Source of the DNA: a virus
Lineage: Duplodnaviria; Caudoviricetes
DNA length: 37,057 nucleotides
IMG/VR virus record: IMGVR_UViG_3300025318_000025
Span: 1 to 37,057 of that record
Direction: 5' to 3' (one strand)
The position numbers were made by a program, and so were the translations under genes. A model generated the notes under the pieces. The model saw only the letters and a list, made by a program, of their open reading frames with translations, ran no database searches and had not been told where the DNA came from. Every line of letters begins with the position of its first letter. Position 1 is the first letter of the stretch. Of the stretch, positions 19,260-27,646 are shown piece by piece.

Positions 19260-21461
19260 ATGGCGCTGATCAACGATCCCGACAACCTATTCCAAGGTGG
19301 AAGCACCTCGGTTACGGATGCGGTTTGGGGAACGCCGAGCGGCGTGACGGTAACGATCACGTCGGCTGGCGCAGGACTGCCGGCGCTAGCTGCCGGTGAC
19401 TTCTTCGAGGTGCGAGATCACTCCCAAGCTGTCAACAACGGGCTTTACCAGGCGAGCGGCACGCCCACTACTTCCTCGGTCACTTGCGACAAGGTGAGCG
19501 GCAGTCCACCGGTCGCGGCTGCGTCAGAGGCAGTGACGACACTCGGCACGACGGCGACGACGAAGAACATCTTCTACGACACGGCTGCACGCAAGGTCTA
19601 CCTGTTGGAGAAGAACGGGTTGAGCGCGGACGGCGTGCTCGGCCAGACCGTGTACTCGAAGATGATGATCGACTGGAAGGACGACGCCTTCCTGATCGCC
19701 AACGCGCCGTTCCCGATGCTCTGCATCGACGCGGACGCCGGCAAGTACATCATCGGCCAGGACGCCTCGGGCAACTTCTCGGGCTGGGTCTGGGCGGATG
19801 TTACCGGCTACTCGATCCGAACGCGCAAGCTCCCTCGGAACATGGGGTGGAGCGAGGTCGACTCCAACGGCATCACGAAGGCCATCCACGCTGGCGTCGT
19901 GACCCTTGGTGCGTTCGAGGATCCGACCAACGACATCGCCTACTACCAGTTCGGTACCGATACGACGGTCGACGACACCGTGAACTTCACGTTTGCGGGA
20001 CCCGTCAATGAGGCGGTCAAGTGCTTCGACGAGATCGGCAACCCGCCGACGTGCACGTTCGCAACGACCAACACGATCACGCGCGCCAGCGGCTCGTTCG
20101 TGACGGATGGTTACAAGAAGGGTGGTCGCGTAACCATCCGCGCCGCCACCCAGTCTCAGAACAACGGAACGTTCACGCTGACGGCGGTGGCTGCGCTGAC
20201 CCTCACCGTCAGTGGCACTCCCTTCGCCACTGGCGCCGATACGGCTGCGCAACTAGCCGTCGACAACCGGACACCGTTCACCGCGCGCTTGCGAATCCGC
20301 GACGCCGATGCCAATGGCAAGACGTACGCCCAGGCGAACCTGGCGAGCGGCGGTGAGACCCTTCTGTCGAACCGACTCTTCAAGTTCCCGCTCGCGAACG
20401 CCACGGACCTGAAGATCGAGGCGACCGACGCAACCATTGACGGGAGCGCGCCGTACACCGGAATGTCACTCACCTACTACGCGACGCCGCAGAGCCTAGG
20501 CGGCGGCGGGGTTCTCGTGGGCGGCCCGTACAACTTCGGGATCGTGATCGTCGCGAACGATGGGACGAACCAGCAGGTCCACGAGCAGATCGCCCGGCAA
20601 CTCCGAAAGACAACGGACATCGACGTGGATGCCGATGTCGGAATCGGCCGGACGCTCGACGGACTGATGCGCTTCGTCGGCGACGCGCTACAGGTGGGCT
20701 CGGTCGACGGAGGTATCACCTTCCCGACGAACCCGGACGGCGGCGGGTCCGGCGTCTTCATCAGCGGACTGAACGCGGCATCGAAGAACTTCACCTCGTT
20801 CTACGACAACACTGGCACGGTCCGCTCGTTCCCGGTGTCGGTGCCTGTCACGCTCGACTTCAACGCGACGCTGGAAGCGGACGCCGCTGCGAAGTTCACC
20901 CTGTTCTTCGACCGGACGATCCGCACGTCAGTGACCGATCTTGTAGTCACCGCCGGATCTGGCGCGAACGGGACGATCACGTCGGCCGGCGCCAACCTGC
21001 CCAACAACGCAGAGCTGACCTCGGGGGACTACGTTCGCCTATTGGGGCTGACGGGGGCCGATGCGGCGATGAACGGCATCTACCAGATCACGACCGAGAC
21101 AACTCCGGGGTCGTCCTGGGCTGTCACGCGGTACGACGGCACGACGATTGTCACGACCAGTTCGGCGACCGTGACCGTGGACCAACATGCCGTCGACTCG
21201 CCAGATGCCGTGATCGTGAAGGACGACGTGAGCGCGGACGTGACCGGAACGATCGGCGGCTCGGACTACGCCTTCAGTTTCGACTACAGCAACAACTCGC
21301 AGGGCGGTAGGACTCCGGCGACCGATGCATTCGTGCTCGCCAAGGCGATCGGCCAGTCTACCGCACAGTACGCGGTGAGCACCGTCCAGCAGATCCAGTC
21401 AGGGCTCGCACTCACGATCCCGGTGGTCGCGCAGCAAGAGCGAAACTTTTCGAACCCGTAG
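19260..21461 (+). CDS. Large virion structural / tail-associated protein
   Basis: 733 aa, Thr/Gly/Ala-rich, with repeated 'NNG(L/T/I)(Y/F)' modules. SD GAGGAG. Confidence 0.7.
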   Translation: MALINDPDNLFQGGSTSVTDAVWGTPSGVTVTITSAGAGLPALAAGDFFEVRDHSQAVNNGLYQASGTPTTSSVTCDKVSGSPPVAAASEAVTTLGTTATTKNIFYDTAARKVYLLEKNGLSADGVLGQTVYSKMMIDWKDDAFLIANAPFPMLCIDADAGKYIIGQDASGNFSGWVWADVTGYSIRTRKLPRNMGWSEVDSNGITKAIHAGVVTLGAFEDPTNDIAYYQFGTDTTVDDTVNFTFAGPVNEAVKCFDEIGNPPTCTFATTNTITRASGSFVTDGYKKGGRVTIRAATQSQNNGTFTLTAVAALTLTVSGTPFATGADTAAQLAVDNRTPFTARLRIRDADANGKTYAQANLASGGETLLSNRLFKFPLANATDLKIEATDATIDGSAPYTGMSLTYYATPQSLGGGGVLVGGPYNFGIVIVANDGTNQQVHEQIARQLRKTTDIDVDADVGIGRTLDGLMRFVGDALQVGSVDGGITFPTNPDGGGSGVFISGLNAASKNFTSFYDNTGTVRSFPVSVPVTLDFNATLEADAAAKFTLFFDRTIRTSVTDLVVTAGSGANGTITSAGANLPNNAELTSGDYVRLLGLTGADAAMNGIYQITTETTPGSSWAVTRYDGTTIVTTSSATVTVDQHAVDSPDAVIVKDDVSADVTGTIGGSDYAFSFDYSNNSQGGRTPATDAFVLAKAIGQSTAQYAVSTVQQIQSGLALTIPVVAQQERNFSNP

Positions 21462-21464
21462 CCA

Positions 21465-23177
21465 ATGGCTCTTACGGTCACCACAGATTTGTCCATTCTA
21501 TCCACGGCGGAAGCCATTGGTGGCGCATCTCCCCAGTGGGTTTCTTATGGCTCTGGTGGTGCAGGCGCGATGGCGCTGGAACCGGACTTCCATGTACAAG
21601 GTGCCAACAGCATTAGCCGTGGTGTCTCCGGGACTGTGAATAAGGGGTGTGTATGGGACAACAACACCGGGATCGACTTCACTACCGGGACACATCAGGA
21701 CAAACTCGTTTATATCTGGATGCGTACCTCGACCCCAGGACTCTGTGACACACGAGTGGCCGGAGGGCTTCGCGTCGTCCTCGGGTCAGGCACGACGGCA
21801 CCGGGCGACGCTGCTGGTGTCTGGTCTACCTGGTACGTAGACGGATCGGATTCTATCGTCGAGACCGATGGCTGGGTTTGTTACGTCGTGGATCCTCAGT
21901 CCACTCCCACGGCGACGTTTGGCGGCGGCGTGGATAAGACGGCGATTCGGTGGTTCGGTGGAGTTCAGCGATCGACTGGGACCGCAAAGGGGCAGAACTT
22001 TGGGGTAGACCAGGTTAGCTACGGTCGGGGTGAACTTTTGGTGAGCGGGACGGTTGCTACAGCAGGAGACGGGTTCAAGGAGATCGCAGCAGTTGCCTAC
22101 GACACGGCTGGAACCAATAGGTGGGGCATCCTTTCGGTGAAGGGGGGTGTCATTTACGTTCGTGGAAAGGTAATCATAGGGCACGCCACCAACAACACCA
22201 CGTTCTCGTCCTACGGTGAGCAGGTCGTGTTCGAGACGCCGTCCTACTATAATGGCACGAACGTGGTGAAGGCTATCCCCGATGCCTCGGTGGGCAGCGT
22301 CCAGGGATCAGACGGCCAGACGACATACCTCGGACTCGGCTTTATTGGCGGCTCCGGGACGACTGTGATTGACTTCGGCGTGATCGTCGGGTCCTCGAGT
22401 GGGCGCTCTGGGCCGACGCTTGGGGTCGCATTGAACCCCGGACTTACGACGCCAGGCAGGACTACGGCCACCATTTCGGTTAGTGATGCGGCCATGGCTC
22501 TTGGTCTCTACGGTACCACGTTCTCGGGCTTCGAGGGGGCAGTAGACCTCAACGGAACGAACGTGGCCGGGGACGACTGCTTTGGCAACACCTTTACGGG
22601 TTGCGGGCGCATTACCTCGAACATGGAGATCCGCAACTGCAACATCCTGAACTCCGTCGCGGTGTCTACGGACGGGGCAGTGCTGTGGGACTCCTCAACG
22701 AACATCCAGTCGAGCTTGTTCGCGAACTGCTCGCGCGCGATTGTGTACGAGGCAACGACCGGGACGCCGTTCGCCTACACCGGGATCAAGTTCAGCGGCA
22801 ACACGGTGGACGTGCGAAACGAGAGCGGCGGGGCCATCACGATCAACGTGTCCGGCGGTGACACACCCAGTACGGAAGACATCGGTGGTGGGTCGTCCAC
22901 TACGGTCAACTCGACGGTCAGCGTGACCGTAACGCCACTGACGGCTGGGTCCGAGGTGCGAGCCTACCTCACCGGGACCGCGACAGAGGTGGACGGGACG
23001 GAGAGCAGCAGCGGGTCGTCACACACGCTGTCGCTGGCGTCGGGCACGGCCGTAGACATAGTGATCCTGTGTTATAGCCCGCCGAAGATCCCCGTGCGCA
23101 TCCAGAACGTGAGCTTCACGGTGGCGCAGAACTTGAACCCGTTTCAACGCGACGAACCGAATTTCTCAAACCCGTAA
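21465..23177 (+). CDS. Virion structural protein (beta-helix-like region)
   Basis: 570 aa; ends 'NFSNP*', as does the upstream gene. Confidence 0.68.
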   Translation: MALTVTTDLSILSTAEAIGGASPQWVSYGSGGAGAMALEPDFHVQGANSISRGVSGTVNKGCVWDNNTGIDFTTGTHQDKLVYIWMRTSTPGLCDTRVAGGLRVVLGSGTTAPGDAAGVWSTWYVDGSDSIVETDGWVCYVVDPQSTPTATFGGGVDKTAIRWFGGVQRSTGTAKGQNFGVDQVSYGRGELLVSGTVATAGDGFKEIAAVAYDTAGTNRWGILSVKGGVIYVRGKVIIGHATNNTTFSSYGEQVVFETPSYYNGTNVVKAIPDASVGSVQGSDGQTTYLGLGFIGGSGTTVIDFGVIVGSSSGRSGPTLGVALNPGLTTPGRTTATISVSDAAMALGLYGTTFSGFEGAVDLNGTNVAGDDCFGNTFTGCGRITSNMEIRNCNILNSVAVSTDGAVLWDSSTNIQSSLFANCSRAIVYEATTGTPFAYTGIKFSGNTVDVRNESGGAITINVSGGDTPSTEDIGGGSSTTVNSTVSVTVTPLTAGSEVRAYLTGTATEVDGTESSSGSSHTLSLASGTAVDIVILCYSPPKIPVRIQNVSFTVAQNLNPFQRDEPNFSNP

Positions 23178-24727
23178 TGGCTGACATCGTCACATTCGAC
23201 CCCACGAACAAGCCGCCGCTGATCATCGAGATCGGCGTGGGCGGTGACAACGTACTCAATGTGGCCGAGATTTACAGCGAGTGGAAGGCCTGGTTGATCG
23301 CGGACCCGAGCAGGCTTGCCTACCCAGCGGCATTTCGCTACGTAGGTAGCGACCCCATCACCGAGAGCCAGAACCTGGGGACGACCTTCTTCCTCCTGAA
23401 CGGATGGAAGATCCGGCCGGCGGAGAGTTCGCACAAGCTGGAACTGGTCGGCAACCTGTTCACCGACCCGGCCGGGCAGGACGAGTTCGTCGACACAATC
23501 GGGGCATTCGTCGTCCGAACGAAGATGCACGTGTCCAACCTCGTCGACTCAGTCCTGGTGAACGCGCCGGAGCTTCAGTTCAGCACCTTCAACAACCGTG
23601 TGACAGTGGACGCGGTGAACGGCGTAGCAGGAACCGCGTTCCCGGCAGGGACAGGGCTACAGCCGGTGAACAACTCGGCCGATGCTTTGCTCATACTGCA
23701 AGCTCGAGGGTTGTCGCACCTGCACGTCATCGGGGACATGACAGTCGACGCCGGACTCGATTACAGCGGGCTTCTGATCACTGGTGAATCTCCTGCAAAG
23801 ACGGTCATTGTAGTGAGCGGCAGCGCCAACGTTGAAGGCTGTGAGTTCCGCGACGCCACGGTTTCAGGGACTTTCGACGGCGATGTCGTCATGCGAGATT
23901 GCGTGACCGGAACTTGCAGTATGGTGAAAGGTCTTGTACGCGATTGTCAATTGCGCGGGACATTCACACTCGCCGGAACATCGGCGGGTCAGTTCTCGCT
24001 CGTCAACTGCGTGGACGACCTGGCTGGCTCAGGCGTTCCGACGATCAACTGTGGTGGCGACGGGCCCGAGGTGATCGTCCGTGGTTACAACGGCGGCCTG
24101 GCGCTAACGAACAAGAGCGGAATTGCTGATGCGAGCGTGGACGGCGTAGTCAGGCTGATTCTGCTGCCTACTTACGGTGGAACAGGGTCTCTGATCGTTC
24201 GTGGGGTCGGTCCCCCCGTTGATAACCAAGCGTCTTTTCCGGACGGACAGATCAACAACGATCTGGTGTCAGTTGAGGCTATTTGGGGGGACACAGCGAC
24301 ATACGGTGCTAGCACGAAGGGGAAGCGCCTTGTCGACGTGGACACGCGGCTGCCAATTGATCCAGCCGACGAGAGCAACCAGCTCGCGCAGCACACAGCT
24401 ACTCAAGCAGCGATCGTTGAATTGAACGACCTGTCACAGGCTGACGTGCAAAGTGCAATGACGGCCCAGGGCTACACGGCGGCCCGCGCGATCAAGATCG
24501 ACTTCCTCGACGCGGCCATCTCGACTCGAGGAGCCGCTACTGTTCTGGATACGGTCCTGAAGCACGTCAAGAACCGCCTGAAGGTGGACATCGATTTGCA
24601 GCAGATTGTTCTCTATGACAATGACGGAACAACGGTTATTCAGCGATGGCCTCTACTCACGAAGGGCGGTGAGCCGGTGACGACGGCGACGGGCGTACAG
24701 GTCGAACGCGGAGCACCACTGCTGTGA
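23177..24727 (+). CDS. Virion structural / fibre-like protein
   Basis: 516 aa with TAATG coupling; 'EIYSEWKAW...FFLLNGWKIRP' N-terminal domain. Confidence 0.68.
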   Translation: MADIVTFDPTNKPPLIIEIGVGGDNVLNVAEIYSEWKAWLIADPSRLAYPAAFRYVGSDPITESQNLGTTFFLLNGWKIRPAESSHKLELVGNLFTDPAGQDEFVDTIGAFVVRTKMHVSNLVDSVLVNAPELQFSTFNNRVTVDAVNGVAGTAFPAGTGLQPVNNSADALLILQARGLSHLHVIGDMTVDAGLDYSGLLITGESPAKTVIVVSGSANVEGCEFRDATVSGTFDGDVVMRDCVTGTCSMVKGLVRDCQLRGTFTLAGTSAGQFSLVNCVDDLAGSGVPTINCGGDGPEVIVRGYNGGLALTNKSGIADASVDGVVRLILLPTYGGTGSLIVRGVGPPVDNQASFPDGQINNDLVSVEAIWGDTATYGASTKGKRLVDVDTRLPIDPADESNQLAQHTATQAAIVELNDLSQADVQSAMTAQGYTAARAIKIDFLDAAISTRGAATVLDTVLKHVKNRLKVDIDLQQIVLYDNDGTTVIQRWPLLTKGGEPVTTATGVQVERGAPLL

Positions 24728-26137: not shown

Positions 26138-26959
26138 TCAGGCTAACTCCAGGACCCCCGCGCAGTCGGGCATCTTGTACCGGGCGCCGGCGGTGTGAAC
26201 GATCAGGTTCGGCAGGATTCGGGTATAGTGCTTCCCGTGCGTGTGCCCGCACAGGACCGTCATGTGCTTGTGCTCGTGCAGTGCCATCACGTCCCGCAGG
26301 ACGTGCCCCACGGCGTCGCACGTGTACCACGGAAGCGCGTAGTCCTCGGTGGGGAGGTTCCGATACCGAGCGGCTTCTGCGAAAGGTGGCACGTGCGTTG
26401 CGAGGACGATGTGCTGCGCCGGCGAGCGGCAGGCTTCAACGAGCTTGGGTAGCAGTCGTTCGGCCGCGGCGTCCCCGAGCTGCTGCAGGCGAGCGATTCG
26501 CGCGGGCCGACGTAGATTCTTGAGCTCCTCGATGTAGTTCCAGTCCGCTAGTTGGGACCGTGAGCCCCAGGGATCGCCGAGTCGTGCGTCCCCGAAACCG
26601 TCGTCTCCGATGAGGATCGTCGACGGTGTGAGCTGCACCGTGGGACTCTGCGTGAGGTATGTGGCTCGAAGATGCTCGGACGTTCTCACGTCGGCGAGTG
26701 CTCGGTGCACCTCTGCGATGGATCCGTAGTAGAAGTCGTGATTGCCGAGGACGAAGTAGATGTCCATCCGCAGCATGCGCTCGAGGTAGTACAAGAACGG
26801 CCCGACGCTGTCCGACTCGGCGATGTCCCCGGTGATGACGAGTCCGTCAGGTTCCTGTGCTGCGATCTCTTCGCAGAATCGCTCGACAACTTCTGCGGAA
26901 CAGAAGTTGAGGTGGATGTCCGAGGCCCAGGCGAGTCGATACACGCTACCAGTCCCCAC
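26138..26959 (-). CDS. Calcineurin-like metallophosphoesterase (CpdA/Icc-like)
   Basis: All five motifs present: SDIH, TGD, GNHD, THVPP, GHTH. Confidence 0.9.
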   Translation of the reverse strand: MGTGSVYRLAWASDIHLNFCSAEVVERFCEEIAAQEPDGLVITGDIAESDSVGPFLYYLERMLRMDIYFVLGNHDFYYGSIAEVHRALADVRTSEHLRATYLTQSPTVQLTPSTILIGDDGFGDARLGDPWGSRSQLADWNYIEELKNLRRPARIARLQQLGDAAAERLLPKLVEACRSPAQHIVLATHVPPFAEAARYRNLPTEDYALPWYTCDAVGHVLRDVMALHEHKHMTVLCGHTHGKHYTRILPNLIVHTAGARYKMPDCAGVLELA

Positions 26960-27612
26960 GTTCGTAGTCGCGGAAGCGCCAGCGCCGTCCGGTCGGATGG
27001 TCTACGACTACTCCGTCCTGCGTGCGGATCGTCCGACGCTTGTCGCCTCGCATGCCAGTTCCGACTTGCGCTCGCCGTGCGGCAGCTTCGGCTCCTTCGA
27101 CGAGGCGACTCACGTGCTCGGACAGTCGGGCACGAAGGACCGTGAGAGCCAGCTCGCGATTGCGATGCTGCGAACGCTCGGACTCTACCCGTACACGAAG
27201 TCCGCTCGGACGGTGCGTGAGTTGCACGGCACTCTCCGTCTTGTTCCGATGCTGACCACCGGGCCCGGAGCCCCGACACATCTGCCACTCGAGGTCGCGC
27301 TCCCGGACGTCGATCTCCGCAGCGCTCCGTTCCTGCAACACGGCCACGGTCACCGTGCTCGTGTGCACGCGGCCGTGCTTCTCGTTCGGGGGGACCCGCT
27401 GCCATCGATGGCCACCGGCTTCGTCTGCGAATACAGCCCGTGCGTTGCCGCCGTGCACCAGGAAGGCTCTGAAGCCGGGGGTGGACTCGACAGATTCGAC
27501 GCTAAAGACACCTCCGTTGGGCAAGCTTCGCGTAGATCGCGAACTGCTCCTCGACAAGTGCCTTTGCGTCAGCTCCACCTTCCGCTGCGCGGATCTCCAC
27601 CAGAATGGTCAT
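26946..27612 (-). CDS. Short RF1-like class I peptide chain release factor, expressed via a +1 programmed frameshift (about 221 aa)
   Basis: Frame 0 (27612-27502) encodes MTILVEIRAAEGGADAKALVEEQFAIYAKLAQRRCL*, matching the start of RF domain 2. The +1 frame has GGHRWQRVPPNEKHGRVHTS and GSGPGGQHRNKTESAV. The junction reads GGAGG TGT CTT TAG C. Confidence 0.9.
27501..27515 (-). promoter_or_regulatory. prfB-type +1 frameshift cassette with a UAG stop
   Basis: Internal SD GGAGG, 3-nt spacer, then CTT TAG C; compare E. coli prfB AGGGGG TAT CTT TGA C. Confidence 0.88.
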
Positions 27613-27646
27613 GCTGTTTCTCCCTTCGGCTTGCGTGTACGGAGGG

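Follow-up and report, generated by a model that had tools for sequence, protein, structure and literature searches.

A prfB-like stop gate on an RF1-like release factor of a soil phage and its relatives

We analyzed a window of 37 kb (the whole stretch of DNA under study, GC near 63%) from a soil phage and found that one of its genes, interrupted by the sequence SD-N3-CUU-UAG-C, codes for an RF1-like release factor of 221 aa that lacks domain 1. The gate is real and conserved, and seems not to have been published; it is a regulatory device of known type, here found on a release-factor family that is itself undescribed and is widespread in phages, metagenomes and bacterial chromosomes, mainly of Myxococcota. 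With moderate confidence, we read the product as a stop-gated backup factor with relaxed codon choice. Somewhat more tentatively, we propose that the family may represent an undescribed third stop-reading factor of bacteria (mainly Myxococcota) and phages, which would read all three stops, act without RF3 and limit itself through a prfB-like or a read-through gate.

The split gene in the phage window

The phage record is about 42% complete, and Pfam recognizes in the window baseplate and tail genes, DNA polymerase A, a primase-polymerase, UDG, ParB, a methylase and a thymidylate kinase. No tRNA genes were found in the 37 kb, and neither an Rfam match nor a promoter-like site. An initial annotation had proposed that the factor gene opens at ATG 27612 behind the Shine-Dalgarno (SD) sequence GGAG, runs for 36 codons up to GGAGG-TGT-CTT-TAG-C and yields about 221 aa by a +1 shift, all of which agrees with the sequence (Table 1). 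The zero-frame peptide is MTILVEIRAAEGGADAKALVEEQFAIYAKLAQRRCL. When CTTT is read as one step, its 36 aa are joined to 185 aa of the +1 frame; in the resulting 221-aa product, the Pfam domain PCRF (residues 3-89) extends across the junction and is followed by the RF-1 domain (residues 98-205), both over cut-off, and with the intact GGQ these are the features of a class-I bacterial release factor.

Table 1. Features of the factor gene, in window coordinates
Feature	Position	Strand	Description and basis
Start Shine-Dalgarno GGAG	27620..27623	-	7 nt upstream of the true ATG 27612; sequence
Zero-frame ORF, 36 codons + TAG	27502..27612	-	First strand of domain 2 and helix alpha5, RF1-like; PCRF match from residue 3
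Helix-alpha5 tip EGGAD	27568..27582	-	Alignment to solved E. coli RF1
Internal SD-like stimulator GGAGG	27511..27515	-	3-nt spacer TGT to the shift codon; sequence
Shift site and gate CTT TAG C	27501..27507	-	CTT 27507-27505, TAG 27504-27502, then C
+1 frame, 185 aa + TAG	26946..27503	-	Rest of domains 2/4, domain 3, switch region, short C-terminal tail
Decoding loop QRVPPNEKHGRVHTS	27357..27401	-	Alignment to E. coli RF1
Catalytic GGQ, intact	27252..27260	-	G118, G119 and Q120 invariant in a 35-row alignment

The SD-N3-CTT-stop motif occurs a single time in the window when both strands are scanned, after helix alpha5 of domain 2 and 82 codons before GGQ, and its internal SD ranks 5th among the 655 ten-base windows of the gene for pairing with the anti-SD. 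Folding of the RNA at the gate was no better than that of shuffled sequence (z=+1.25), giving no sign of an RNA stimulator there. That the reading frame is interrupted without an indel, on which the initial annotation had made its proposal depend, was borne out by contigs (not raw reads) from 4 of 4 public runs, which cross the gate with neither indel nor substitution; 2 of the runs compared may be the source of the window DNA. Given a classic prfB cassette at this site, and given that a shift also occurs at CUU-UAG in E. coli tests (Atkins et al. 2016, PMC5009743), the full factor of the window's copy is very probably made only when UAG termination is slow.

Downstream, a gene for a calcineurin-like metallophosphoesterase occupies window positions 26138-26944 (minus strand), with a likely GTG start 1 nt past the stop of the factor, suggesting that its translation may be coupled to successful shifting; this gene is absent from the flanks of the factor's relatives. 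Elsewhere in the window, three consecutive large Gly/Thr/Ser-rich genes (19260-24727, plus strand), the first two of which end in the peptide NFSNP, are likely paralogous tail or surface proteins.

Conservation and distribution of the gate

When the post-shift half alone was used to search viral sequences, ten loci were recovered, and all seven that are full-length have an N-terminal piece one frame upstream, with the break at the same codon and the sequence CTT TGA C. A motif scan of viral contigs gave at least 119 loci, and a scan aimed at UAG and UAA gates gave 29. The best 80 loci were taken from bacterial genomes, mostly of Myxococcota, and the best 80 from metagenomes, the window's own record being dropped from the latter. 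Among the best 80 bacterial loci, 72 are +1-shifted (49 UGA and 23 UAG gates); of the other eight, four contain an in-frame UGA, two are without the N part, and there is one open and one unclear case. The gate is thus not the phage-specific device that had been supposed. Bacterial carriers include Minicystis rosea and Nannocystis exedens, with UGA gates, and Archangium gephyra and Pyxidicoccus fallax, with UAG gates. After pooling and de-duplication, both halves are present in 235 loci, and the prfB-type +1 architecture that the initial annotation had recognized is kept in 186 of them, beside 37 loci with an in-frame stop, 11 that are open and 1 other.

Nearly all breaks of the 186 shifted loci fall at one common codon, and the shift codon is CTT in 185, compared with 38 of 424 at other Leu codons of the N part. 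Of these 186 loci, 143 have an SD-like word and 148 a C after the gate stop (+4); among 136 shifted loci, 129 have a start codon 33-40 codons ahead of the gate. In one sub-branch (L415, L424, L433, L437, L439, L413, L441, L141, L409), the SD-like word is lost and CGCGACGGT or CACCACGGT stands before CTT; the CTT-stop is retained there, with UAG, UGA and UAA swapped among proteins that are 77-90% identical.

The in-frame class carries UGA in 35 of 37 loci, which suggests some preference, and one of its two UAG rows (L443) looks like a mis-sorted shift. In its large UGA branch (L012, L019, L020, L025, L026, L030, L043 and others; L165, L192, L199; L382, L384), the frameshift is replaced by a single UGA at or near the place of the gate, at codon ~33-50 and often at a likely Trp site; in many of these loci TGA still ends neighboring genes and Trp is elsewhere encoded by TGG, so that a read-through gate is suggested. 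In five loci (L028, L050, L062, L112, L170), the gene contains a pair of in-frame stops (TGA+TGA or TGA+TAG) with a spacing of eight codons, possibly a double read-through gate, and in L054, L094 and L113 an in-frame stop occupies the exact gate codon without a shift (TAT TAG; CTA TGA; CTC TGA), so that these may be intermediates between the shift and read-through forms. The UAG-gated copy of L008 / L234 contains foreign sequence, by insertion or rearrangement, between the decoding loop and the GGQ region, and in L162 the family's C-terminal half is matched a second time inside the same 8.6-kb locus, possibly by a tandem copy or a fragment.

Among 119 top hits in a protein database, 61 are uninterrupted full-length proteins and 58 are truncated; open forms therefore exist and are favored by this kind of search. 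Most of the 58 truncated hits start in the out-of-frame reading of the gate (F-D 29, F-S 12, F-E 4), and the family is systematically mis-annotated because gene callers assign a false N-terminus. A collection of annotated phages held no described member: its two best matches were unannotated uncultured huge phages, and its three annotated matches were ordinary RF1/RF2.

Host RF1 is retained in 49 of 50 genomes. RF2 with its own CTT TGA gate was found in 4 of the 5 genomes searched (no motif was seen in the stretch scanned of the fifth), and a PrfH-like gene is separately present in 2 of 5 hosts. No recurring partner gene was detected, the largest neighbor cluster, an HNH-like gene named by eye, covering 10 of 178 loci. 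The window's own neighbors recur solely as a methylase, in 3 loci, and Pfam revealed no RtcB-like gene beside the window's copy. Genes for tRNA flank the factor, at a distance of a few kb or less, in 49 of 87 viral loci; one of these phage loci, L069, has the sole TTT TAG gate and a nearby tRNA with a CUA anticodon, tRNA-Pyl according to ARAGORN.

Codon reading and the stop at the gate

The closest family of the joined protein is RF1. NCBIfam scores were 183 bits for prfA, 128 for prfB and 96 for prfH, all below the cut-offs (423 for prfA, 167 for prfH), and identity was 35-40% to host RF1 compared with 30-32% to RF2. The prfA match begins at position 114 of 361, hence domain 1 is absent, and with 221 aa the factor falls short of the ~360 aa of a full-length RF1 that includes this domain. 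The SPF tripeptide of RF2, in addition to domain 1, is missing too. An AlphaFold2 model (mean pLDDT 89) gave a TM of 0.92 to ribosome-bound RF1, 0.76-0.89 to RF2 and 0.63-0.68 to PrfH. In FastTree, the position of the factor relative to RF1, RF2 and PrfH received low supports (13-18), and the RF1 ancestry, argued from sequence scores and motifs, is to be taken as probable.

The stop-reading residues of E. coli RF1 (named in PMC3974865, where E123 reads U1) have equivalents in the factor: G12=G120, D15=E123, Q71=Q185, P74=P188, N76=T190, H83=H197 and T84=T198. The third-base readers Q185 and T198 are kept in this way, and the decoding loop that had been called RF1-type is so in its residues and closest family, except that Asn replaces the Thr of PxT: the window's protein has PPN, most relatives PxT. 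This Asn (at E. coli T190, proposed to repel G at base 2; PMC5776981), the absence of domain 1 and the normal host RF1 alongside had all been missed by the initial annotation. The change of E123 to Asp is family-wide (129 of 130 N-part rows), and E6, E11, G12 and G13 are invariant in 130 of 130, an invariance that is partly circular because many rows were chosen on the N-terminal motif (the 7 full-length loci of the post-shift search are exempt). A six-residue deletion in the domain-2/4 hairpin (54 residues, compared with 60 in 8 of 8 host RF1/RF2) aligns roughly, by hand count from S205, with RF2 residues 172-177, and loss of the E172-K177 salt bridge of RF2 has been proposed to loosen codon checking (PMC7530605). 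The Glu-to-Asp change and the hairpin deletion may thus point to relaxed reading, by arguments borrowed from RF2 and E. coli.

The initial annotation had read the gate as an UAG-specific mirror image of RF2 control. For the window's copy, a response to slow UAG termination is indeed expected; across the family, such a mirror does not hold. Outside the targeted scan and the window, the gates are 119 UGA, 50 UAG and 3 UAA (n=172), and the tree of 122 rows has at least 27 flips (27-28 UGA/UAG changes; shuffled mean 34, minimum 26). Gates differ even between proteins with identical decoding loops (L435/L447, 84% identity; L137/L151, 82%) and between L437 and L441, with 90% identity and near-identical loops. 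The initial annotation had asked whether SD and CTT are conserved and whether stop identity covaries with the decoding tripeptide: SD and CTT are conserved, but no link appeared between the gate and loop N/T, H/Q or T/S (p=0.41, 0.70, 1.0), nor for N/T in the pooled data (N/T counts 37/71 with UGA, 22/36 with UAG; Fisher p=0.73). In the metagenome subset alone, Asn is enriched with UAG gates (12 of 16 versus 10 of 26, p=0.029), which runs opposite to the prediction that Asn allows UGA. As the RF1 Thr is kept in 71 of 108 scored UGA-gated members, UGA reading cannot depend on the Asn change alone. A further candidate, residue 150 in domain 3, where Gln goes with UGA gates, stood out in a set of 373 tests (p=3e-6) and exceeded label shuffles; it was rejected as kinship, there being no trend in nine independent pairs (an underpowered comparison) and no replication in metagenomes (p=0.31).

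UAA is avoided at the gate: it occupies 0 of 72 bacterial gates, compared with 104 of the 1,303 gene ends that were called in 49 of the genomes concerned. Using a crude gene caller and leaving out genome G015, we also compared TAG usage between UAG- and UGA-gated copies. In bacterial flanks, the TAG share was 0.41 versus 0.20 (n=21 and 43; p=1.5e-4), and in other regions of the genomes, two of which contained the factor gene, 0.33 versus 0.24 (22 versus 27 genomes, p=0.044). The link found no support in independent pairs, and in phage flanks the shares were 0.22 and 0.22; host TAG usage is a weak lead only.

A loop specific to one factor should fix the gate stop, as in prfB, so that the free exchange of UGA and UAG together with the avoidance of UAA would be fitted best, in a judgment we hold with middling confidence, by a reader of both UAG and UGA; the interchange in many relatives makes a backup factor likelier than an UAG-specific mirror of RF2 control. 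Under this preferred reading, most ribosomes would end at codon 37 through host RF1. If termination is slow, the internal SD would pair with 16S rRNA, tRNA-Leu would slip from CUU to UUU with UAG in the A site, and the full factor would be made. It would read UAG and UAA like RF1, and probably UGA too, thereby closing its own gate whichever stop is present. Reading of both single-factor stops would make the gate indifferent to UGA or UAG, and UAA would be avoided since both host factors read it fast. RF1 without domain 1 still releases peptides and loses contact with RF3 (PMC1586002); the factor may likewise work without RF3 and would add to termination whenever host factors become saturated or suffer impairment, for example during infection, while the gate would limit the harm from a less discriminating factor. 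The conservation of the gate, the exchange of stops, the lack of a link between gate and loop, the changes at T190 and E123 and the hairpin deletion all point in this direction, as may, by analogy, CUU-UAG shifting in E. coli, release by RF1 without domain 1 and the retained host RF1 and RF2.

Counting against the backup reading, the UGA gates are explicable without UGA reading if the factor has plain RF1 specificity (UAA and UAG), a possible but rather less likely account in which UAG copies are autoregulated and UGA copies cross-regulated: RF2 shortage would open the gate, and the extra factor would relieve the shared UAA load, in line with the "communicating vessels" model that ties both factors through UAA (PMC7530605). 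The circuit of the initial annotation would then be right for the window phage, in which 12 of 33 called genes end in TAG. RF1 is the closest family in bits and identity, PxT is kept in most members, and UAG-gated bacteria are somewhat richer in TAG; on the other hand, with ~70% UGA gates most copies would lack a feedback that limits their own synthesis, near-identical proteins differ in gate, and the link with TAG usage is gone in independent pairs and absent in phage flanks. We consider it improbable that the factor is instead a ribosome-rescue protein that, like ArfB or PrfH, depends little or not at all on the codon, and whose gate reports general termination failure. Its size and domain loss are as in PrfH, it is frequent in phage tRNA arrays, and either single-factor stop serves as gate, but the codon-reading residues of RF1 (Q, P, H/Q, T/S) are conserved, PrfH itself is ruled out by HMM score, fold and loop, neither an RtcB-like gene nor any other is a regular partner (at most 10 of 178 loci), and some hosts have a separate PrfH-like gene.

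A recoding switch, in which a suppressor tRNA or a reassigned stop opens the gate to time phage genes rather than to sense termination, is very improbable. The CUA-anticodon tRNA beside the UAG gate of L069 and the in-frame stops in related genes would suit it, whereas the window has no tRNA (in a record ~42% complete), its long ORFs are unbroken when read with code 11, TAG is the natural end of DNA polymerase A, the gate is also found in ordinary bacterial chromosomes, and a suppressor would be expected to compete with the +1 shift rather than promote it. The split ORF, seen in contigs and not raw reads, could in principle reflect an assembly error or a pseudogene; given that the four runs agree and that 185 of the 186 shifted relatives, some of them from cultured strains with complete genomes, have the same break at CTT, we give this a negligible probability, and as a family-wide explanation it is refuted by the shared break.

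In conclusion, UAG serves as a natural gate stop in this family, the device appears to have arisen independently on a gene derived from RF1, and putative read-through versions of it occur as well. If the reading of all stops were true, it would include a natural omnipotent bacterial release factor and the first natural UAG-sensing frameshift gate. Whether all three stops can be read safely, and why RF2 alone is autoregulated, become testable in cultured strains, and a small RF3-independent factor and a UAG-sensing switch could serve work on recoded organisms.

Comparison with known systems

The initial annotation knew of no description of such a system, and we likewise found none of the family in the literature searched, which includes the available text of PMC6514570, PMC3711429 and PMC5009743; supplements, that of Prince 2025 among them, could list members. 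In the main text of recent surveys (Prince 2025, PMC12421855), RF2 is the sole factor under the control of programmed frameshifting, to the exclusion of RF1, and UAG never occurs as the stop. That study examined prfA pseudogenes only where an alternative functional prfA was absent, so an extra copy such as the window's would be skipped. Atkins 2016 (PMC5009743), in the part available, gives an in-frame UAG counterpart for RF1 as unknown, and no read-through substitute as known for bacterial release factors.

The Mimivirus/Megavirus factor (Jeudy et al. 2012, PMC3521657) is likewise encoded by a virus, and its internal stops are passed by frameshift and read-through; it differs in being of eRF1 type, in an amoeba host and of an unrelated fold family, and the available account of it describes no SD-driven CUU shift. 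Like PrfH/RFH (Baranov et al. 2006, PMC1586002), the factor is a class-I protein of ~200-220 aa without domain 1 and of patchy distribution. Unlike PrfH, it lacks the SXY loop, scores 96 bits with TIGR03072, below the cut-off of 167, is gated by a stop, has no recurring upstream (RtcB-like) partner and co-occurs with PrfH-like genes in some hosts.

With canonical RF1 (prfA), the factor shares the fold of domains 2-4 (TM 0.92), GGQ and the equivalents of Q185, P188, H197 and T198. It departs from RF1 in the missing domain 1, in T190 to Asn and E123 to Asp, in the six-residue deletion, in its gated expression, in a score of 183 compared with the cut-off of 423, and in being a non-essential extra copy beside host RF1.

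The closest parallel is prfB (Prince 2025, PMC12421855; Atkins 2016, PMC5009743), with which the gene shares an SD-like element 3 nt upstream of CUU, the CUU-U site followed by a stop and +4 C, a short useless zero-frame peptide and a release factor as product. The factor is, unlike RF2, RF1-like and without domain 1, and whereas the prfB stop is UGA or UAA and read by the encoded RF2 (98.6% TGA, 1.4% TAA and 0 TAG of 8,164 gates; Prince et al. 2025, PMC12421855), the window's copy has UAG, as do 50 of 172 untargeted relatives. The gate of the factor lies after helix alpha5 and that of prfB in domain 1, which is missing here, suggesting that the device was acquired separately rather than inherited with the prfB site.
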